From a virus (Duplodnaviria > Heunggongvirae > Uroviricota > Caudoviricetes): DNA of 9,541 bases. The notes beneath the pieces are model-generated. The model made no database searches. It saw only the letters and a list, made by a program, of their open reading frames with translations, and was not told where the DNA came from. Made by a program: the position numbers and the translations under genes. Position 1 is the first letter of the stretch; every line of letters begins with the position of its first letter. Shown piece by piece: positions 1 through 8,539 of the stretch. Location of the stretch: the IMG/VR virus record IMGVR_UViG_2706794687_000013. One strand, 5' to 3'.

Positions 1-116
1 GAACAGGAGGGACAGCTGATAGAAACAGAAGCCACTGGAGCACCTCAAAAACACCATCATACACTAAATCAGTAAGTTGGCAGCATCACCCCGCCACAGA
101 ACAATTATTGCTTTTG

Positions 117-133
117 CCGTTGATGACAATAAA
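117..133 (+). repeat. left copy of a 16/17-bp direct repeat (CCGTTGATGACAATAAA) flanking the R-M cassette
   Basis: Read directly: 117-133 CCGTTgATGACAATAAA matches 3161-3176 CCGTTATGACAATAAA, an 11-bp exact core plus CCGTT with one indel. The copies sit about 110 bp outside the REase stop and about 70 bp outside the MTase start. Confidence 0.6.
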
Positions 134-242
134 GTTTTTATCGCAGGCGTATACCACGGTGGGCAAATCTATGAAACCGATTTTTTATCCAGTGCACCGT
201 AAAACCCCCATCCTTCAGGGCGTGGCGGATATCAAACTTTGG

Positions 243-1325
243 TCATTTTCTCTGGCTGATCTTTACCGGATAACCATCCCGAAGATCAATTAAGTGCTCC
301 GGTTCAGAAGCAAACCATGCATAAGATCCCCACGCCAATTCTGGTATTGCCTTTTTAAAAGGCAGAGCACTTCTGTCCATAAATGCCGTAAGGAATGCAA
401 GATTTTTCTCGCTGAACCCAGCGTCAATAGCCAAATGAGTGAGAGTAACTTTTCGTTCCCTGTTTATAGGCCCATCTGTCGCAACTACTTCAGTGAAAAC
501 TACAAGCATGTCCGAACCCGTTCGGTCCTCTCCCAAATCAATCAAAATAATATCTGGAAGTGCTTTTGAGGCATCAATATTCAGCCCCAATGCTTTTGCC
601 AATACATCATCCTGAGCAACAACTTTATTCCCGGATTCAGACAACCAGAGCACAGTTGGATTCTTAAGAAAATTAGGAGCAAAAACTTCGATGACGGCCT
701 TAGCTATTGTACTTGACGGGCCCGGAGCTAAAGTTCTCTTCTCTCCATTTGGGAAAGTGACGACTACGGCATCAGCAGCAATCACTGCCCCTGATTTCAA
801 TAAACGCAACCTAGCAAGAGCGGCTTTGTTCAAATGATTTTCTTGCCAGGAACTTATTGCACTCAGCAGCGAATCTCCTTCAAGCCCGGCATCAAAGAGT
901 GCTGCAAAAGAGCGATTCAAACTGTAACGAGGACGAGAGGATGTGGTGGGTATACCTTTACGCTCAACAATTGCATTGCAAGGTATTAGGCCATTTTTTA
1001 TAGTTTCATCACGTATTGGCTCACGCGTATTTTCCGCATACCATGCATCAGCAGGCCTTATCTTTTGTTTAGAGAAAGTCATCTTTACCCAGCTTTCTCT
1101 GGACGCATCATCAGTAAGAGCAGCCTGCGAATCTCCCATACTTACAACCTGGCTGGGCCTTATCCATCGCCCCAGCCCCTCAACCGCACCAGCATAAAAC
1201 ATGACAAAAATTGTTTTTGCAGCTATTTCCCGAATTAAATATCCACGATTCTCAGTCCCTTCAGGGAAAATTAATTGTAATCTTTCCCGGATAACATTCA
1301 ATGGGGGAACAACAGGCAGATTCAT
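243..1325 (-). CDS. putative Type II restriction endonuclease, partner of the adjacent methyltransferase (possibly BsuBI/PstI-like; family recalled from memory, unverified)
   Basis: 360-aa ORF. Its ATG (1325-1323) overlaps the MTase stop (ATGA at 1325-1322), implying translational coupling. GGAG lies 10 nt upstream. GC is low (about 40%), like the MTase. No MTase or specificity-subunit motifs; no nuclease motif could be confirmed by eye. Confidence 0.55.
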   Translation of the reverse strand: MNLPVVPPLNVIRERLQLIFPEGTENRGYLIREIAAKTIFVMFYAGAVEGLGRWIRPSQVVSMGDSQAALTDDASRESWVKMTFSKQKIRPADAWYAENTREPIRDETIKNGLIPCNAIVERKGIPTTSSRPRYSLNRSFAALFDAGLEGDSLLSAISSWQENHLNKAALARLRLLKSGAVIAADAVVVTFPNGEKRTLAPGPSSTIAKAVIEVFAPNFLKNPTVLWLSESGNKVVAQDDVLAKALGLNIDASKALPDIILIDLGEDRTGSDMLVVFTEVVATDGPINRERKVTLTHLAIDAGFSEKNLAFLTAFMDRSALPFKKAIPELAWGSYAWFASEPEHLIDLRDGYPVKISQRK

Positions 1326-3094
1326 GCAATCATCACTCCATAGAAACCAGCGATAGTTCTCTCAATAATCCGTCTGTGGACGCCAGCATCAATTAACGAT
1401 TGAATCTCCATCACCTGCTCCAGAGAAGGCAACGGGATTGAATTCAATTCATAGGCCGAAACAGCAACACTTCCGCTTATACACCTGAACGCCCGATCGA
1501 CAACATGCGAATTAAGTAGCATATCAATAACATCAGGGCGAACCGCAGAGAACAATCCGTTTGAATATACAATATTAATATGGTTTTCAACTACTACGCC
1601 ACCAGTTTCATCTATAAATCCCTGAGGTAAAATTGCCGCTAAAATCCTTCTGTCCTGTTCCTTCGATGTTGTCCGCTGAACAAGCACACATTCAGATTTT
1701 GTCACAAGGAAACCCTGTTGTGGGGTTATATCGATATAGGGAACATGATTTTTTCTGTCTGCACTAAAACGAAAACCAGCTGAAGTTATTGATTCCGCCC
1801 AGACTAATGGGTAGCTATTTTTTCCTTTCGTCGTACGCAACTGCGACTTAAATCGATTCCAGACTAACTGACCTGTAGAGACTGAGTATCCCAGATCAGC
1901 TAAACGCGTAGACATCTGTTTTAATACATTAAGAAAACAGGCATCATCTTTAACGCGTGGCAAAAGCCACGTTGCTCCACCTTTTTCTATATCAACATTA
2001 CCTATTTTCTCAATTTTTGCTTTGTTCAACCCCTTAGGGACAAGTGAGGATACCTGGGCCCGAACTTTATGTTCTCCCGCCTTGAATGCTGTCAACATTG
2101 TTTCCTGGAGAACATCGTCAAAGACCCCATCCCTGTCAGTGACGAAATCAAGGGCATACGGAGTAGTTTTTTCGGTCAAAAGNNNNNNNNNNNNNNNNNN
2201 NNNNNNNNNNNNNNNNNNNNNNNNNNNNNNNNNNNNNNNNNNNNNNNNNNNNNNNNNNNNNNNNNNNNNNNNNNNNNNNNNNNNNNNNNNNNNNNNNNNN
2301 NNNNNNNNNNNNNNNNNNNNNNNNNNNNNNNNNNNNNNNNNNNNNNNNNNNNNNNNNNNNNNNNNNNNNNNNNNNNNNNNNNNNNNNNNNNNNNNNNNNN
2401 NNNNNNNNNNNNNNNNNNNNNNNNNNNNNNNNNNNNNNNNNNNNNNNNNNNNNNNNNNNNNNAATGGATCGATCTCTATCCCCTTTAAACGACGACTGAT
2501 TCTCCTCAACATCCATTCAGGGGAAGACCCCTTGTCTTTTTTTAACATTCGAATGGCTACTGGTGCCAAAAATGCACCGCCACCACACGCAGGATCAATA
2601 ACCGATGCATGAGAAAAATCAACACCAGACTTTTCAGCCAGGTCCAAGAGACGCGCTACCAAAGGTGGGGGGGTATAGTAAGCCCCCAATTCCGAACGGT
2701 AAGCGGATGGCAGCATTACCGTATAAATTGACCCAATCAGATATCCAGCGTCCTCCGCCGGAAATTGAGCAATAAGCTCACCTGTTCGTTCAGCGAGCTC
2801 GCGTGCATCACATGGAATGTCTTCTATGTAAACAGTGTGCGGTACTGCCCTCATTTTAATGCTGCTTTTTTGCTTTTTTGCAAGGGTATCCCAATATGCA
2901 GCTACGATGCTGAAGCAGTATGAGCGGGCATGCATCAACCTTGACTGCCCGGTTTTGTAATTGCCCGCATAACCTTTGGCCATGGCTTTACAAGTTTGAT
3001 ATCTTTCCAGATTAGAAAACTCATTATCTGTAAAAAAATCAAAATGTTGCACATTCATAATGTAAAATCCTAATGTATCAAACATGCGGGCCAT
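1322..3094 (-). CDS. N6-adenine DNA methyltransferase (N6_Mtase/HsdM-like catalytic domain with a TaqI-like C-terminal target-recognition region); Type II R-M methylase
   Basis: 590-aa ORF. 'GAYYTPPPLVARLLDL' and 'DPACGGGAFL' match the AdoMet-binding motifs (X and I) of gamma-class amino-MTases. The C-terminal part ('LADLGYSVSTGQLVWNRFKSQLR...') resembles TaqI-like recognition domains. Motif IV (NPPY/F) presumably lies in the masked stretch 2183-2462; frame continuity across the mask is assumed from length. Alternative start ATG 3058 (AGGA 9 nt upstream). Confidence 0.8.
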   Translation of the reverse strand: MARMFDTLGFYIMNVQHFDFFTDNEFSNLERYQTCKAMAKGYAGNYKTGQSRLMHARSYCFSIVAAYWDTLAKKQKSSIKMRAVPHTVYIEDIPCDARELAERTGELIAQFPAEDAGYLIGSIYTVMLPSAYRSELGAYYTPPPLVARLLDLAEKSGVDFSHASVIDPACGGGAFLAPVAIRMLKKDKGSSPEWMLRRISRRLKGIEIDPXXXXXXXXXXXXXXXXXXXXXXXXXXXXXXXXXXXXXXXXXXXXXXXXXXXXXXXXXXXXXXXXXXXXXXXXXXXXXXXXXXXXXXXXXXXXXXLLTEKTTPYALDFVTDRDGVFDDVLQETMLTAFKAGEHKVRAQVSSLVPKGLNKAKIEKIGNVDIEKGGATWLLPRVKDDACFLNVLKQMSTRLADLGYSVSTGQLVWNRFKSQLRTTKGKNSYPLVWAESITSAGFRFSADRKNHVPYIDITPQQGFLVTKSECVLVQRTTSKEQDRRILAAILPQGFIDETGGVVVENHINIVYSNGLFSAVRPDVIDMLLNSHVVDRAFRCISGSVAVSAYELNSIPLPSLEQVMEIQSLIDAGVHRRIIERTIAGFYGVMIA

Positions 3095-3160
3095 AACATC
3101 TCATGGTGGCGCATAGCAAACTGGCCCGAAGAATATCACGCACCAAGTCGATCTCATAAC

Positions 3161-3176
3161 CCGTTATGACAATAAA
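3161..3176 (+). repeat. right copy of the 16/17-bp direct repeat (CCGTTATGACAATAAA) flanking the R-M cassette
   Basis: Read directly; same orientation as the copy at 117-133. Lies in the 214-bp gap between the MTase start and the upstream gene. Confidence 0.6.
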
Positions 3177-3308
3177 TCTTTGTAGCTGAACTCACTTGGT
3201 GATTTGTCAATCATTCCTGGCCTCCAGTTCGTCCTGAATCTCTTTATCGAGTTCACCGTATTTGTTAGTCCTCATCACTCACGACTTGACTTCCAGAAAT
3301 AACCTTGA

Positions 3309-3665
3309 TTATTCGGGGCTATATTTTGTCACCCTGCGTATCCGCGCTTTCGCATTACGCTCAATCTGGATTAGCTTTTCTATATTTTTTCGCCTTTCCC
3401 GCTCCTCCTGGCGCAAGAGCCTTACATCATCTGCCAGTCTGGTTTCTCTTTTCGCCACAGAGAGCATCCAGTCAAATGGCTCCACAACTGCACCGCAAAT
3501 TTTACAGCGGACCTGACGCTCTTTTTCGTCAACCCGGACAGAAGCGTGATGGCAATATGGTCTTTCCGATGGCTCATAAAGAAAATTAACCTGATTACGA
3601 GGGTTATCCTCTTTTACCGGAAATAAAACAATATTGCTTAACTCATCTTCTGGTTTTATTTCCAT
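3309..3665 (-). CDS. hypothetical protein with a Cys-cluster (zinc-ribbon-like) N-terminal half and a basic coiled-coil-like C-terminal half
   Basis: 118 aa from ATG 3665-3663, preceded by a strong RBS (GGAGAGGAGC immediately upstream). Pattern 'YCHHASVRVDEKERQVRCKICGAV' (C-x16-C-x2-C). C-terminus is rich in R/E/K ('RLLRQEERERRKNIEKLIQIERNAKARIRR'). The track's longer form (to 3722) lacks an RBS. Confidence 0.55.
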   Translation of the reverse strand: MEIKPEDELSNIVLFPVKEDNPRNQVNFLYEPSERPYCHHASVRVDEKERQVRCKICGAVVEPFDWMLSVAKRETRLADDVRLLRQEERERRKNIEKLIQIERNAKARIRRVTKYSPE

Positions 3666-3722
3666 GCTCCTCTCCTTTGATGCGAATGCCAGCGGTAATT
3701 GAAGCCTGATAGCTAATTTCAC

Positions 3723-4145
3723 TCACAGTACCGCCTCCTGAAAATCACCCTGATAGAAAGCCGGTACACGCTGCATAACTTCACTCTTCCGGCACTCGCG
3801 ACAGATTATGTTCTGATGTCTGTCGTAGCGGCGTATTTCTCCGTCCGGTAATGACCAGATAAGGTCCGGATCAACCACAGATGGTTTCTTCAGCTTTGCC
3901 CTCGAGAGTTTTTTGCGGGCGTTTTGCCAGTCCTTACGAGCCTGTTCAGACGGGAATAACCCGTAGCCAGAGTTGTATACATCCCCACTGGCAACCAGCT
4001 CTCTGGCGAGAACGCTTATTAAATATCTTGTCGCCCCGGTTTTAGCTTCCAGTTGTCGTAACGTCTCGCGCCCACTCTGGCGTACGAGTTCAACAACCTG
4101 CCCCTTAATTTTTTCCCGCTCTTCCTGTGTAAATACTTTTGCCAT
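3723..4145 (-). CDS. hypothetical prophage protein (possible winged-helix N-terminal region, CxxC near C-terminus)
   Basis: 140 aa from ATG 4145-4143 (the track's 4160 start is TTG). Tightly packed in the leftward operon, 15 bp after the upstream gene's stop, with a G-rich stretch before the ATG. 'VVELVRQSGRETLRQLEAKTGATRYLISVLARELVASGDV' looks HTH/wHTH-like. No family recognised. Confidence 0.5.
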   Translation of the reverse strand: MAKVFTQEEREKIKGQVVELVRQSGRETLRQLEAKTGATRYLISVLARELVASGDVYNSGYGLFPSEQARKDWQNARKKLSRAKLKKPSVVDPDLIWSLPDGEIRRYDRHQNIICRECRKSEVMQRVPAFYQGDFQEAVL

Positions 4146-4160
4146 AAGCGCCCCCGGCAA

Positions 4161-4886
4161 TCACTTTTCCGACACAATACGACCGGAGGAATCGACAATC
4201 TGTCGAACAATATCCCGGTGCTTGTTCAGCTCCCGCAACGCGGCGCAGACACGCTCCCACTTCTGGACATGACTTTTCGCCCGACGCAGTTCGCGGTTTG
4301 CCATATGCAGCGATGGTAAAACCAGGTCATCCGCTTGCGTTTCGGTGAACGATGGCAACGACTGCACAATGTCCGCCACAGTTTCTGTTTTAATTTCTTC
4401 CTGTGTTGCAGCTTCCTGTACCGGTAACGCAACACCTGCTGGCTGAGGAAAGACTTTACCATCCGTTTCCGCTATGGATGCGGCTTTCGGCTCTGCCGGT
4501 AAATCAGCGCCCGGTATGCAGTACCGAAATTTACCGCCCTGATTCACGCGAATCAGACGCCCTTTGCTGATTGCCATGGCCAGCGATGAATTCGCCCGGC
4601 GGGAGGTAATCCCGAACATCAGTGCCAGCTCATCCGCCGTTTGTGGGCCATGTTGTTCAATCGCCTCAGTCAGCATTTGCGCTGTCACTTTCGGTACCGG
4701 TGACACTGGTTCACTTTCACCAGCCTGAATCAGCCACCACATCGAACCCTTGTTATCCGCTTCACCACGGCGCTTCAGTTTCCACAGTTCGTTGACCGCA
4801 TCTTCACGGCTGATTCCAAGGCGGGACGCCACCACATGTGAAGAGGCTCTTTTCAGTGCTTTCAGTGCGTCAAATACAGTTTCCAT
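4161..4886 (-). CDS. hypothetical prophage protein with two putative winged-helix-like repeats (possibly a DUF-type phage protein; unverified)
   Basis: 241 aa from ATG 4886-4884, with GGAGG 8 nt upstream; the track's 4904 start is TTG. Two similar segments ('[40 protein letters not shown]' and '[43 protein letters not shown]'). Starts 21 bp after the DnaC-like stop. Confidence 0.55.
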
Positions 4887-4907
4887 TAAAACATCCTCCA
4901 ACAAAAA

Positions 4908-5420: not shown

Positions 5421-5685
5421 NNNNNNNNNNNNNNNNNNNNNNNNNNNNNNNNNNNNNNNNNNNNNNNNNNNNNNNNNNNNNNNNNNNNNNNNNNNNNNNN
5501 NNNNNNNNNNNNNNNNNNNNNNNNNNNNNNNNNNNNNNNNNNNNNNNNNNNNNNNNNNNNNNNNNNNNNNNNNNNNNNNNNNNNNNNNNNNNNNNNNNNN
5601 NNNNNNNNNNNNNNNNNNNNNNNNNNNNNNNNNNNNNNNNNNNNNNNNNNNNNNNNNNNNNNNNNNNNNNNNNNNNNNNNNNNGG

Positions 5686-6737: not shown

Positions 6738-7163
6738 TCAATGTACTGCCACAGCATTTCCTGCCGGGCCACCACGGTTCATCTGATTGAAACCGGCGAT
6801 TGCCACTGCGACAAAATCATCAGCGTCTCTCACCAGTCGTTCATGCGTCTCCACCAGTTCCCGAAAATAAGCTGAACTGTGGCTGCGCATTCGAGCCACC
6901 AGCGGAGGTGGCATTGCCCTTTCGATCGCAGGTAACAACGCCTGAATTTTTTCAACAGCGTCAGGGGTGTCTTTATCCAGCCAACGGAAAATCTTTTGGG
7001 TGTTGAGATAAAGCGTGTTGTGCTTGCTGTCGTTATGCAGAACCGGAAACGTCATTCCCAGTTCGAAATAAACCCTGGTTATTTCAGCTGCCGGAACTTT
7101 TTCACCGTCCGGATGCGCCCAGGCTTTCATCGCCATGCGGATGTGTTCATGCTTGATTTTCAT
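6738..7163 (-). CDS. ydaT: YdaT-like prophage regulatory protein (possible CII-like role in the switch)
   Basis: 141-aa ORF beginning 'MKIKHEH...'. Its ATG (7163-7161) overlaps the upstream gene's stop (ATGA). Size and position (second gene after the Cro-like gene, before the O-like and DnaC-like genes) match Rac ydaT as recalled; sequence identity not verifiable here. Confidence 0.6.
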   Translation of the reverse strand: MKIKHEHIRMAMKAWAHPDGEKVPAAEITRVYFELGMTFPVLHNDSKHNTLYLNTQKIFRWLDKDTPDAVEKIQALLPAIERAMPPPLVARMRSHSSAYFRELVETHERLVRDADDFVAVAIAGFNQMNRGGPAGNAVAVH

Positions 7164-7423
7164 GAATCAACCCCCGCCGATGGTTGTGTGTTAGCCTGAA
7201 ACTCAGCAGGCAAGCCGTCAGTTGGGTTGGGGTAGGTTTTACTGTCAATCTCATGTGGGGTCACCACCCATCCCGTTGCTTCACACCAACGTAATATTTT
7301 TTCTCCTGTAAGTTTTGCACGCCCCGTTATAACGTGGCTGACCATCCCTTGGGATGCGCCAACAATCTCAGCAAATGAACTCTGGGTTATATGAAAATGA
7401 TGCAAATATTCTCCAAGATTCAT
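7160..7423 (-). CDS. ydaS: YdaS-like Cro-type HTH DNA-binding protein (first gene of the leftward early operon)
   Basis: 87 aa from ATG 7423-7421 (the track's 7450 start is TTG and would run into the operator region). HTH-like 'ITQSSFAEIVGASQGMVSHVITGRAKLTGEKILRW'. Divergent from the repressor gene. Confidence 0.6.
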   Translation of the reverse strand: MNLGEYLHHFHITQSSFAEIVGASQGMVSHVITGRAKLTGEKILRWCEATGWVVTPHEIDSKTYPNPTDGLPAEFQANTQPSAGVDS

Positions 7424-7534
7424 AATCCGCCCTATGTGATGTGTTACCAATGCATAATTAATAGCACTGTTATTTTTAAAAGTAAATAGTGATACTATTT
7501 CAAAGTGATTAGCAATCTTATTAGAATTGGATGT
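7424..7534. promoter_or_regulatory. divergent promoter/operator region with two 15-bp palindromic operator-like sites (O1 7460-7474 AATAGCACTGTTATT; O2 7485-7499 AATAGTGATACTATT)
   Basis: 111-bp AT-rich gap between divergent starts. O2 is a perfect 6-3-6 palindrome. Candidate rightward promoter TTCAAA(7499-7504)-17-TAGAAT(7522-7527), ending 7 nt before the repressor ATG. Candidate leftward promoter overlapping O1/O2 on the minus strand. Confidence 0.5.
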
Positions 7535-8035
7535 ATGAAAAGAAAATCATTGTCAGACACCGACCTCAACGCCGCCAGAAGACTGAAAGAAATCTGGATG
7601 GCAAAGAAATCTCAGTTGGGATTGACTCAGGAACGTGCGGCGGAAATTATGGGGTTTTCAACACAAGGGGCGGTAAGTCACTACCTAAATGGTCAAACCC
7701 CACTAAACCTTGAGGCTGTTCTAAAGTTTGCTGGCTTACTGAAAGTTCCCCCTGAGTCAATCAGGCCAGACATGGTAGATTTGCTGCAAATTGCAAGGAT
7801 GTATTGTCGAGAACCACAGCAAGATAACATAGTCGCATTACCAGCAGACACAGAACAAACAGAGGATGAACTACCGTTTGCCGTAGAGCCGATGGAACGA
7901 GATTTAATCCATACGTTCAGAGCTTTTCCGAAAGAAGATCAAGAACACATGCTTCAGGAGATGAAAGATAAAAAAGAATCAATGGATCGTACGGTTGCGC
8001 GGTGGTTAGCTGCACAAAAAGGCCGTCGCGCCTAA
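7535..8035 (+). CDS. paaR: XRE-family HTH transcriptional repressor (PaaR/RacR-like prophage repressor)
   Basis: 166 aa from ATG 7535 (the track's 7505 start is GTG). Canonical HTH_XRE 'LGLTQERAAEIMGFSTQGAVSHYLNGQTPLNLEAVLKFAGLLKV'. Divergent from the Cro-like gene; followed 19 bp later by the antitoxin-toxin pair. Symbol inferred from operon architecture, not sequence identity. Confidence 0.75.
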   Translation: MKRKSLSDTDLNAARRLKEIWMAKKSQLGLTQERAAEIMGFSTQGAVSHYLNGQTPLNLEAVLKFAGLLKVPPESIRPDMVDLLQIARMYCREPQQDNIVALPADTEQTEDELPFAVEPMERDLIHTFRAFPKEDQEHMLQEMKDKKESMDRTVARWLAAQKGRRA

Positions 8036-8054
8036 ATCAGAGGAGATATGTAAA

Positions 8055-8249
8055 ATGAGTACAGTCCTTTCCCCAATGGTTTCAGAATTTGAGACAGTTG
8101 AGCAAGAAAATAGTTACAACGAATGGCTGCGGGCCAAAGTAGCAGCAAGCCTCGCGGATCCCCGCCCGGCGATTCCGCATGATGAGGTAATGGCGGAAAT
8201 GGAACAAATTATTGCCCAAATTGCTGCTGCAACTCACAGAGGTGAATAA
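8055..8249 (+). CDS. paaA: small antitoxin of a ParE-type toxin-antitoxin module (PaaA-like)
   Basis: 64 aa; AGGAG 9 nt upstream of ATG 8055. Stop TAA 8247-8249 overlaps the toxin ATG (TAATG). Acidic, low-complexity C-terminus. Size and position match the recalled PaaA2 antitoxin; symbol assigned by context. Confidence 0.65.
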   Translation: MSTVLSPMVSEFETVEQENSYNEWLRAKVAASLADPRPAIPHDEVMAEMEQIIAQIAAATHRGE

Positions 8250-8539
8250 TGTTACCCGTTTTATGGCTACCATCTGCTCGTGATGATTTGCGCCAGATCG
8301 TAGCCTACATAGCTAAAGAAAATCCCGCGGCAGCACGCAGAATGAAAATTCGAATTGAAACATCCGTTTTGCCGCTCACAGAGCATCCTTACCTGTATCC
8401 TCCAAGCGAGCGAGTTCTTGGTCTTCGTGAAATTGTAACTCATCCTAACTACATCATCCTTTACCGAGTAACAGCATCAAGCATAGAAGTAGTAAATATT
8501 GTGCATTCTCGAAGACAGTATCCAGGCAAAAACAGTTAA
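8249..8539 (+). CDS. parE: ParE/RelE-superfamily toxin (ParE-like)
   Basis: 96 aa. 'LPVLWLPSARDDLRQIVAYIAKENPAAARR...GLREIVTHPNYIILYRVTASSIEVVNIVHSRRQYP' fits the ParE/RelE pattern. Translationally coupled to the upstream antitoxin; GAGG upstream. Confidence 0.8.
   Translation: MLPVLWLPSARDDLRQIVAYIAKENPAAARRMKIRIETSVLPLTEHPYLYPPSERVLGLREIVTHPNYIILYRVTASSIEVVNIVHSRRQYPGKNS

Follow-up and report, generated by a model that had tools for sequence, protein, structure and literature searches.

Gene Organization of the Locus

The window, meaning the whole analysed stretch of 9,541 nucleotides, is a Qin-like cryptic lambda-like prophage of Shigella sonnei truncated by IS1. Near its truncated end it carries a two-gene cassette, in which a DNA methyltransferase gene (M) is followed by a restriction endonuclease gene (R). 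The features of the locus are as follows:

1..90: terminal part of an IS1 element (100% identity to the IS1 ends of many records), which takes the place of the remaining prophage; boundary
91..202, plus strand: 3' remnant (last 112 nt) of a parE toxin gene, convergent with the cassette, from alignment to E. coli FDAARGOS_943; boundary
243..1325, minus strand: R gene, encoding a 360-aa BsuBI/PstI-family Type II restriction endonuclease (Pfam, PADLOC and SdaI matches)
1322..1325, minus strand: ATGA, in which the M stop TGA overlaps the R start ATG (read directly)
1322..3094, minus strand: M gene, encoding a gamma-type N6-adenine DNA methyltransferase, a 590-codon ORF in the window (motifs, Pfam, PADLOC)
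2183..2462: run of 280 N inside the M gene, over methyltransferase motif IV and neighbouring motifs
3095..3171, minus strand: upstream leader conserved with the cassette and candidate promoter of its own (comparison across prophages)

M and R are separate, adjacent genes on one strand with a 4-nt overlap, which is the gene layout of a Type II system. A preliminary description of the locus had reported that the ATG of the 360-aa ORF overlaps the methylase stop as ATGA, and the overlap can indeed be read at 1322-1325, with GGAG placed 10 nt upstream of the R ATG; it had also placed both genes on the strand of the replication genes, where they lie. The ATGA overlap suggests that translation of R is coupled to that of M.

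Restriction Endonuclease

R belongs to the BsuBI/PstI family, as the preliminary description had supposed. Residues 10-172 match the Pfam domain BsuBI_PstI_RE_N (PF17728) with an E-value of 1.2e-30 (106.6 bits, cut-off 27), while residues 188-349 match BsuBI_PstI_RE (PF06616), the nuclease family against which a check had been proposed, with an E-value of 9.3e-45 (152.2 bits, cut-off 27), and the domain order is that of the family, an N-terminal HTH domain followed by a C-terminal PD-(D/E)XK domain. In addition, R matches the PADLOC model REase_II PDLC03589 over its full length (2.8e-128), its protein sequence is identical to RefSeq WP_001053102.1, and the only solved structure that it matches is that of SdaI (2IXS; E = 1.8e-16, query residues 96-349); no NCBIfam model matches R. 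Residues P257, D258, E279, V281, G285, P286 and K234 are invariant in comparison with the EcoGIII-type R and SdaI, and among 77 members of the subfamily P257-D258 and E279-x-V281 are near-invariant, which is the core of a PD-(D/E)XK nuclease.

Ala282 of R aligns with K251 of SdaI, which is reportedly catalytic, and the biochemically active EcoGIII type has Thr at this position. The Ala could be taken to favour a reading of the S. sonnei cassette as a relic, silent or decayed, either because its operon is repressed or because R is inactive, with M at most an orphan-like epigenetic methylase. This reading is unlikely, and it is countered here by the retention of the invariant PD...E core and by an active enzyme type that also does without Lys at the K251 position; on the same grounds, the proposal that Ala282 renders R catalytically dead was dropped.

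Methyltransferase and the Masked Stretch

The two motifs named in the preliminary description are directly legible in the window, with motif X GAYYTPP at residues 137-143 of M and motif I DPACGGGAFL at residues 167-176. Because the N run at 2183..2462 covers the catalytic motif IV, this motif is illegible in the window; it is seen as GNPPYGR at about residue 260 in unmasked, near-identical S. sonnei and E. coli copies. The order of motifs X, I and IV (NPPY), followed by a C-terminal target-recognition domain, is that of the gamma class. The assignment as a gamma-class N6-adenine methyltransferase, which had been made from the motifs, is borne out by the Pfam matches of a full-length copy to Eco57I (1.8e-13, 51.4 bits, cut-off 25.3) and N6_Mtase (1.9e-9, 37.7 bits, cut-off 20.4) and by a match to M.TaqI in the PDB. 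Of the two Pfam families that had been suggested, N6_Mtase was thus recovered, while TaqI_C was undetected in the Pfam search with the full-length copy; NCBIfam gave sub-threshold matches only. M also matches PADLOC MTase_II PDLC03338 over its full length (6.7e-300), and the Type II methylase model PDLC03227, which has 494 positions and is of BsuBI size, at 2e-50; judging by its length, the latter model might represent the PstI/BsuBI methylases. Chance is not a serious alternative for either gene, because the values reach 9e-45 and 1e-30 in Pfam and 2.8e-128 and 6.7e-300 in PADLOC.

Nine S. sonnei contigs share the flanks with the window at 99.9-100% identity; in them, 340 nt stand in place of the 280 N and encode ...VVGNPPYGR... 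within an intact M of 610 aa. Similarly, a second N run in the window (5421..5683) is 59 nt shorter than the corresponding stretch in the same contigs. The masks therefore appear not to be length-preserving, since both runs are 59-60 nt shorter than the matching contigs, and as these contigs are otherwise 100% identical, a real 60-nt in-frame deletion in M is unlikely. In a tenth assembly with the same flanks, L085, M is frameshifted and R is intact. The frameshift may be real or a sequencing error; if it is real, an active R would be lethal, a point in favour of the silent relic. The start of M is ambiguous: ATG 3094, used by RefSeq, gives 610 aa in unmasked copies, and ATG 3058, favoured by other gene calls and by alignment with a diverged Serratia copy, gives 598 aa, against 590 codons including the N run for the ORF in the window.

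Assignment to Type II

The RefSeq product name of M, "HsdM family", points to another interpretation, namely that M is an HsdM-like subunit of Type I that needs an S subunit encoded elsewhere, and that the pair is not a simple Type II system. M also has weak matches in the PDB, at E = 2e-5 and 4e-5, among M subunits of Type I, and it matches PADLOC MTase_I models at about 1e-9; both go in the same direction. Type II methylase models score far higher, the best matches being the MTase_II and PDLC03227 models given above, and the C-terminal 270 residues of M can be aligned to that part of the EcoGIII-type Type II methylase which recognizes the target. In Type I systems HsdS and HsdR are encoded with HsdM; here, neither HsdS nor HsdR is present in the window, nor does either recur in 78 related loci, which makes the Type I interpretation highly improbable. 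The preliminary description had likewise seen neither a specificity-subunit gene nor a controller gene, and this holds, with HsdR absent as well. For the controller (C) protein, no ORF of controller size lies in 3095-3308, the upstream genes differ between the contexts in which relatives of the cassette are found, and the one HTH gene that recurs nearby, in 11 loci, looks HigA-like, which is not the arrangement of a C-regulated system. Very probably, M and R form a Type IIP restriction-modification system that is complete in itself and belongs to the PstI/BsuBI/SdaI lineage. It is accessory ("moron") cargo of a lambdoid prophage, decayed in S. sonnei, and occupies the stretch that separates the replication genes of the prophage from its Q antiterminator.

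Both genes are already named in RefSeq and by PADLOC, and the cassette is a standard, known kind of Type II module.

Comparison with Known Systems and Target Site

PstI and BsuBI, which recognize CTGCAG, are the founders of PF06616 and PF17728, and R matches both family domains well above threshold; the present R and M are both larger than theirs, and the likeness was assessed here through family profiles. SdaI, the site of which is CCTGCAGG, shares with R the PD...E-x-V...GP core and a C-terminal ELAW...W motif, but the two proteins are only about 26% identical, Ala282 stands in R where SdaI has K251, and in the alignment the first ~75 N-terminal residues of the present R have no counterpart in SdaI.

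A prophage-borne PstI-like system has already been characterized experimentally. According to published work on EcoGIII, a PstI-like system of Stx2a-converting phages of E. coli (O104:H4 C227-11, O145, O111 and O103), CTGCAG is the site of both its methylation and its cleavage, and the system confers protection from lambda-like phages (PMC6602927, PMC3893438). The present cassette has in common with EcoGIII its location in a lambdoid prophage, the order M then R with a 4-nt overlap, the absence of a C protein, and the combination of an m6A methylase with a BsuBI/PstI nuclease. The differences are that the R proteins are ~25-27% identical, with 317 aa in EcoGIII and 360 aa here; that the M proteins are 25% identical (E = 7e-27) over residues 240-584, the C-terminal two-thirds, the EcoGIII M having 489 aa and the present M 598-610 aa with an extra N-terminal region; and that EcoGIII lies directly downstream of cI on the cI strand, whereas the present cassette lies in the replication-to-Q region, in the other operon. 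The possibility that the cassette is EcoGIII itself was rejected in view of this identity of about 25-27% and the other prophage slot. EcoGIII is the nearest characterized analogue, and the cassette, which probably works like EcoGIII, stands outside the EcoGIII cassette lineage.

CTGCAG as the target is an extrapolation, because R is only ~25-27% identical to the EcoGIII-type R and SdaI. When the over- and under-representation of palindromes was calculated for 0.89 Mb flanking related cassettes, with no control set, the observed-to-expected ratio of CTGCAG was 0.97, and the most depleted palindromes were the usual ones, CTCGAG and GGATCC. A literature search on the recognition site, methylome, activity and expression of this cassette, covering S. 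sonnei, the RefSeq accessions and methylome papers on Burkholderia and Xanthomonas, returned nothing relevant. A bolder and rather doubtful proposal is that this diverged PstI-family subfamily might recognize a site other than CTGCAG and form a species-wide barrier and epigenetic mark of S. sonnei against E. coli, under dual control by its own promoter in the lysogen and an early-operon boost on induction, and that it might be kept by post-segregational killing. Knowledge of the target site would aid the genetic manipulation of S. sonnei and the reading of gene flow into that pathogen.

Conservation and Distribution

Of 80 related loci found in other bacteria, among them many Proteobacteria, 78 have R directly behind M in the same orientation, and across these loci the identities of M and R fall together. 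Comparison of the S. sonnei, Kluyvera and Citrobacter copies gives a dN/dS of 0.05-0.07 for both genes, and both are under strong purifying selection; this value, about 0.06 in the lineage, argues against the silent relic. The same applies to the comparison with an apparently complete prophage of E. coli, whose copy has an R identical to that of S. sonnei and an M that is the same except at a single residue (A339T). Because S. sonnei is a young clone, intactness of the genes within it says little about selection there.

No further gene belongs to the conserved unit: besides the M-R pair, no flanking ORF family recurs at more than about 40% of the related loci and no conserved third gene is found, the resolvase (31 loci) and the HigA-like HTH gene (11 loci) being lineage-specific. 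In 50,697 phage records, a nucleotide search found no copy of the cassette, only matches to IS1 and short flanks, and a protein search found no member of the present subfamily, only the distant EcoGIII type.

The exact R protein occurs in 4192 blocks of an assembly collection, where the names are those of S. sonnei, and complete E. coli genomes rarely have the cassette (2 of 5,426). A PADLOC survey has reported 982 Type II systems in 994 S. sonnei genomes, its supplement giving counts only (PMC13293514). Almost all S. sonnei genomes appear to have this cassette as their single Type II system.

Prophage Setting

Upstream of the cassette lie cro-like, YdaT, replication organizer, DnaC-like, DUF1627 and DUF977 genes. 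Relatives that are intact have the cassette in a mid-operon position, with the replication genes on one side and NinG/RusA/Q on the other. The preliminary description had placed it at the distal end of the early leftward operon; it is distal in this remnant, but not in origin, because an IS1-associated deletion took away the rest of the prophage, and the operon is leftward in the orientation of the window only, being in lambda terms the PR (rightward) operon. On the chromosomes of S. sonnei, a mannitol-dehydrogenase gene comes directly after IS1, and beyond it lie YdfZ, GntR-type, short-chain dehydrogenase and peptidase M3 genes. That the prophage is cryptic and IS1-truncated is a further point for the silent relic.

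Accessory defence cassettes occupy variable slots of temperate phages, for instance the nin region of lambdoid phages and, in P2, the slot that follows gene A. Every one of the closest homologues of the present cassette belongs to a prophage: two occupy the same lambdoid slot and one follows gpA of a P2-like prophage, with toxin-antitoxin genes at their flanks. The present cassette has parDE to one side, and PaaA2-ParE lies close to the repressor; the boundary remnant at 91..202 corresponds to the final part of the annotated RelE/ParE toxin gene of E. coli FDAARGOS_943. There is thus no difference in kind, and the cassette is one more cargo of that type.

The same setting bears on whether the cassette is mainly a selfish addiction module that stabilizes the prophage fragment by post-segregational killing rather than a means of defence. 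The IS1-associated deletion spared both genes, coming to an end ~150 nt past the stop of R, the cassette sits among the toxin-antitoxin modules just named, and in other bacteria it is mobile, with resolvase genes as neighbours in 31 loci and one occurrence on a plasmid. Addiction is compatible with defence, as the same biochemistry yields both effects, and the EcoGIII precedent is one of phage protection (PMC6602927); a mainly selfish role is possible, but less likely than not.

Expression of the Cassette

About 75-130 nt upstream of M travels with the cassette in three lambdoid prophages (S. sonnei, Kluyvera and Citrobacter), and further upstream the sequences diverge. This conservation across prophage contexts argues against the silent relic, in favour of which it can be said that a consensus scan of the coding strand upstream of M found no sigma-70 promoter. 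In our reading of the leader, a candidate promoter may be formed by a TG-extended -10 element, TGaTATTCT (3138-3130), and a weak -35 element, TTATGA (3159-3154). It had been suggested that the cassette is expressed by read-through from the early promoter. The shared strand is consistent with this, and no terminator-like site was found on the coding strand between the replication genes and the cassette, but the conserved leader indicates that read-through is probably not the sole source. In the repressed prophage, expression would probably start from a promoter within this conserved leader of ~75-130 nt, and on induction read-through from the early (PR-type) operon may be added.

Proposed Function

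If the cassette acts as a Type IIP module, M would methylate the N6 of adenine in a short palindrome on both strands of the host DNA, the palindrome most likely being CTGCAG or a relative that contains CTGCAG. R would use its N-terminal HTH domain to bind that palindrome, and its C-terminal PD-(D/E)XK domain would cut unmethylated DNA, so that incoming phage and plasmid DNA would be restricted. The order with M first and the ATGA overlap, by coupling translation, may make it easier for protection to precede cleavage in a system that has no controller protein. A role in defence and addiction is a reasonable inference, for which EcoGIII provides the precedent (PMC6602927). Cells that lose the cassette would probably suffer post-segregational cutting, and this may be part of the reason why the prophage fragment has been retained. 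The locus offers a clear example of a defence cassette that has outlasted the deletion of the surrounding prophage.

Gene Organization and Family Assignment

The preliminary description placed the methylase (M) and endonuclease (R) genes of the cassette as overlapping ORFs on one strand, and this layout is confirmed with its coordinates:

1322..3094, minus strand, M ORF, upstream gene, 590 codons as listed
243..1325, minus strand, R ORF, downstream gene, 360 aa

At 1322–1325, the M stop TGA overlaps the R start ATG (the end of M reads ...GCATGA in the window), and GGAG lies 10 nt 5' of this ATG; the motifs GAYYTPP (residues 137–143) and DPACGGGAFL (residues 167–176) are both read in the window ORF of M. 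The pair appears to be a normal Type II restriction-modification (R-M) module carried as prophage cargo and annotated already, as RefSeq names R "BsuBI/PstI family type II restriction endonuclease" and M "HsdM family class I SAM-dependent methyltransferase". The earlier interpretation is supported overall, including the BsuBI/PstI assignment, rated its weakest part: R matches both Pfam domains of this endonuclease family, PF17728 (HTH domain, residues 10–172, 1.2e-30) and PF06616 (catalytic domain, residues 188–349, 9.3e-45). SdaI (2IXS; E = 1.8e-16) is the sole relative of R with a solved structure. In an alignment of R with SdaI, the EcoGIII-type endonuclease of Stx2a phage and four subfamily members, the invariant residues of R are K234, P257-D258, E279, V281, G285-P286 and the C-terminal E329-x-A-W...W337. 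The position of SdaI K251 is occupied by Ala in R and by Thr in the EcoGIII-type endonuclease; a reading of R as a dead enzyme on account of this Ala was set aside, because the EcoGIII-type endonuclease gene, with its Thr, has been reported to be biochemically active (PMC3893438).

The M fragments in the window, interrupted by Ns, give weak Pfam and NCBIfam matches, while full-length unmasked M matches the Eco57I methylase (1.8e-13) and N6_Mtase (1.9e-9) families in Pfam and M.TaqI in the PDB (3e-8). Together with the gamma-type motif order, in which X, I and IV are followed by a C-terminal recognition domain, these matches bear out the proposed gamma-class N6-adenine methyltransferase. The EcoGIII-type methylase, too, aligns with full-length M (25% identity, E = 7e-27), over a stretch that starts at NPPY and extends across the C-terminal target-recognition region. 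The N-terminal ~100–125 residues of M (1–~125, window ~2720–3094) are without a Pfam match; many alphaproteobacterial homologues, like the EcoGIII-type methylase, lack this region or cannot be aligned with it. The PADLOC models MTase_II PDLC03338 (6.7e-300) and REase_II PDLC03589 (2.8e-128) fit M and R end to end, respectively; therefore, standard defence-system tools already represent the exact subfamily.

Copies in Shigella sonnei

The window contains two N runs, 2183..2462 (280 nt, within M, covering the expected site of catalytic motif IV) and 5421..5683 (263 nt, in the replication genes). Nine S. sonnei contigs are 99.9–100% identical to the window on both flanks of each run, and in the shorter tenth contig (L092), 100% identity begins just inside the IS1 junction and ends at the second N run, beyond which the sequence diverges. 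In the S. sonnei contigs, the equivalents of the runs measure 340 and 322 nt, that is, 60 and 59 nt longer, and the first unmasked stretch encodes FAAWMS...VVGNPPYGRVTL... inside an intact 610-aa M. Since both runs are too short by the same amount, the shortfall probably stems from the masking, in this particular strain as well, rather than from a deletion; ORF lengths through the runs, such as the 590-aa M, are thus understated. The diverged Serratia copy can be aligned only from the equivalent of ATG 3058, which is preceded by TAGGAT, so a 598-aa form starting there may be the true M product.

R is identical in all ten S. sonnei contigs, and M is intact in nine of them, one residue (A339T) apart from the E. 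coli copy. In the remaining contig, L085 (GCA_040189005.1, ~8209–10004), R is intact and M is frameshifted into pieces of 133 and 428 aa; if real, this split would point to an inactive or silent R in that strain, but it may instead be an assembly error. The public assembly collection lists the exact R protein in 4192 blocks, and its cluster members are named Shigella sonnei. A PADLOC survey of 994 S. sonnei genomes counted 982 Type II systems and remarked on the uniformity of the species (PMC13293514); as the cassette is near-ubiquitous, these systems are likely to be the same M-R pair.

Relatives and Selection

The nearest homologues are all in prophages: in Kluyvera huaxiensis (89%) and Citrobacter sedlakii (86%), the pair occupies the slot between the replication genes and RusA/DUF968 of lambdoid prophages, and in Serratia marcescens (75%) the gene A/portal gene interval of a P2-like prophage. 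Both genes show dN/dS values of 0.05–0.07 in comparisons between the copies from S. sonnei, Kluyvera and Citrobacter. A scan of one genome per species gave 80 loci with R homologues (47–70% identity) in Burkholderia, Paraburkholderia, Erwinia, Pseudomonas, Sphingomonas, Caulobacter and many other hosts; in 78 of these, an M homologue (40–67% identity) ends right at the R start on the same strand, and the identities of M and R drop together. No third flanking ORF family recurs in more than ~40% of the related loci; therefore, M and R form a mobile module of two genes that is self-contained. Searching 5.8 billion proteins returned more than 3,700 relatives, each carrying a generic family name.

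Upstream neighbours in the related loci include a resolvase gene in 31 and a HigA-like HTH gene in 11, and one related locus is plasmid-borne; spread by transposon or plasmid is suggested for the module outside enterobacterial prophages. The resolvase is of the serine type (Pfam Resolvase, 1.3e-43), encoded just upstream of M-R on the same strand (31 of ~78 loci), and the loci with this neighbour fall within the compared loci L016–L081, mostly alphaproteobacterial.

Comparison with EcoGIII and Target Site

Lambdoid prophages are already known to carry a PstI-like R-M system, EcoGIII. In the O104:H4 Stx2 phage, it is reported to methylate and to cleave CTGCAG, to confer protection against other lambda-like phages and to influence the expression of ~1,900 genes (PMC6602927); EcoGIII is also found in Stx2a prophages of O145, O103 and O111 strains (PMC3893438). 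In the phage records, the EcoGIII type shares with the S. sonnei cassette the M-then-R order with a 4-nt overlap, but it lies directly downstream of cI on the cI strand, whereas the S. sonnei cassette sits in another prophage slot, and the two differ in sequence (R ~25–27% identical; M ~25% over two-thirds of its length). Judged by these comparisons, the S. sonnei cassette is a distant relative outside that cassette lineage and would work like EcoGIII.

Literature searches turned up no account of the cassette's recognition sequence, methylation, restriction phenotype or expression. Palindrome avoidance in 0.89 Mb of flanking DNA gave no lead to the target, with CTGCAG at an observed/expected ratio of 0.97. 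PstI, BsuBI and EcoGIII recognise CTGCAG, and the SdaI site contains it; because the characterised relatives share this sequence, CTGCAG is the best guess for the target, about as likely to be right as wrong, and at ~25% identity the specificity may have changed.

Prophage Context and Regulation

The window ends beside the cassette as follows, and three further genes separate the cassette from the replication genes:

1–90, IS1 end (identity to IS1)
91–202, convergent to the cassette, remnant of a second parE toxin gene, last 112 nt (alignment to annotated gene)
within 3309–4904, minus strand, DUF1627 gene, 247 aa, 3.9e-93
within 3309–4904, minus strand, DUF977 gene, 145 aa, 2.6e-30
within 3309–4904, minus strand, gene for a 118–137-aa protein, weak zinc-ribbon match

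Compared with the intact E. coli prophage, the window is missing parD, the partner of this parE, as well as the entire set of Q, lysis and late genes. In S. sonnei chromosomes, IS1 is directly followed by genes for mannitol dehydrogenase, YdfZ, a GntR-type regulator, a short-chain dehydrogenase and peptidase M3; on the opposite side lies DUF1391, with DicB and DUF1482 genes in some contigs, and the E. coli counterpart carries the RefSeq gene names ydfB, ydfC and dicB. We take this site to be the Qin prophage neighbourhood of E. coli K-12. The cassette occurs in only 2 of 5,426 complete E. coli genomes, and one of these, FDAARGOS_943, has a complete-looking prophage around it, as does contig L087. 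The order there is repressor/cro/YdaT, replication organizer/DnaC-like, DUF977 and a small gene, M and R, convergent parDE, DUF968 (NinG-like)/RusA/Q, and then lysis genes, terminase and portal. The cassette had been placed at the distal end of an early leftward operon; the early operon stands, but in the complete-looking prophages the position is in the middle of a PR-type operon, and "leftward" holds in the window orientation only. In the window, the cassette is distal because all beyond it was lost next to IS1. The trio at 3309–4904 is not kept beside the cassette in the Kluyvera prophage or the Serratia P2-like prophage, and in the Citrobacter prophage a DUF977 gene lies two genes upstream of M.

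The stated absence of a controller gene agrees with the present results: the interval between M and the upstream gene (3309..3722) contains no ORF of the size of a controller protein, and the genes upstream of M differ between prophage contexts. On the coding strand of this 214-nt gap, neither a terminator-like site nor a consensus sigma-70 promoter was found. Upstream of ATG 3094, ~75 nt (Citrobacter) to ~130 nt (Kluyvera) are conserved with the cassette, and the sequence farther upstream is diverged; the conserved leader contains a TG-extended -10-like element, TGaTATTCT (3138–3130), a candidate drawn from three closely related sequences.

The early operon opens (6738–7450, minus strand) with a cro-like HTH gene (96 aa) and, after it, a YdaT_toxin-family gene (141 aa), a pair of the YdaS/YdaT type that is common in cryptic lambdoid prophages. 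A three-gene module beside the immunity region (7505–8539, plus strand) resembles the three-component paaR2-paaA2-parE2 system of O157 prophages. It encodes an HTH_3 regulator (176-aa ORF), which may also serve as the prophage repressor, an antitoxin of the PaaA2 family (64 aa, 3e-23) and a ParE toxin (96 aa, 1.8e-17).
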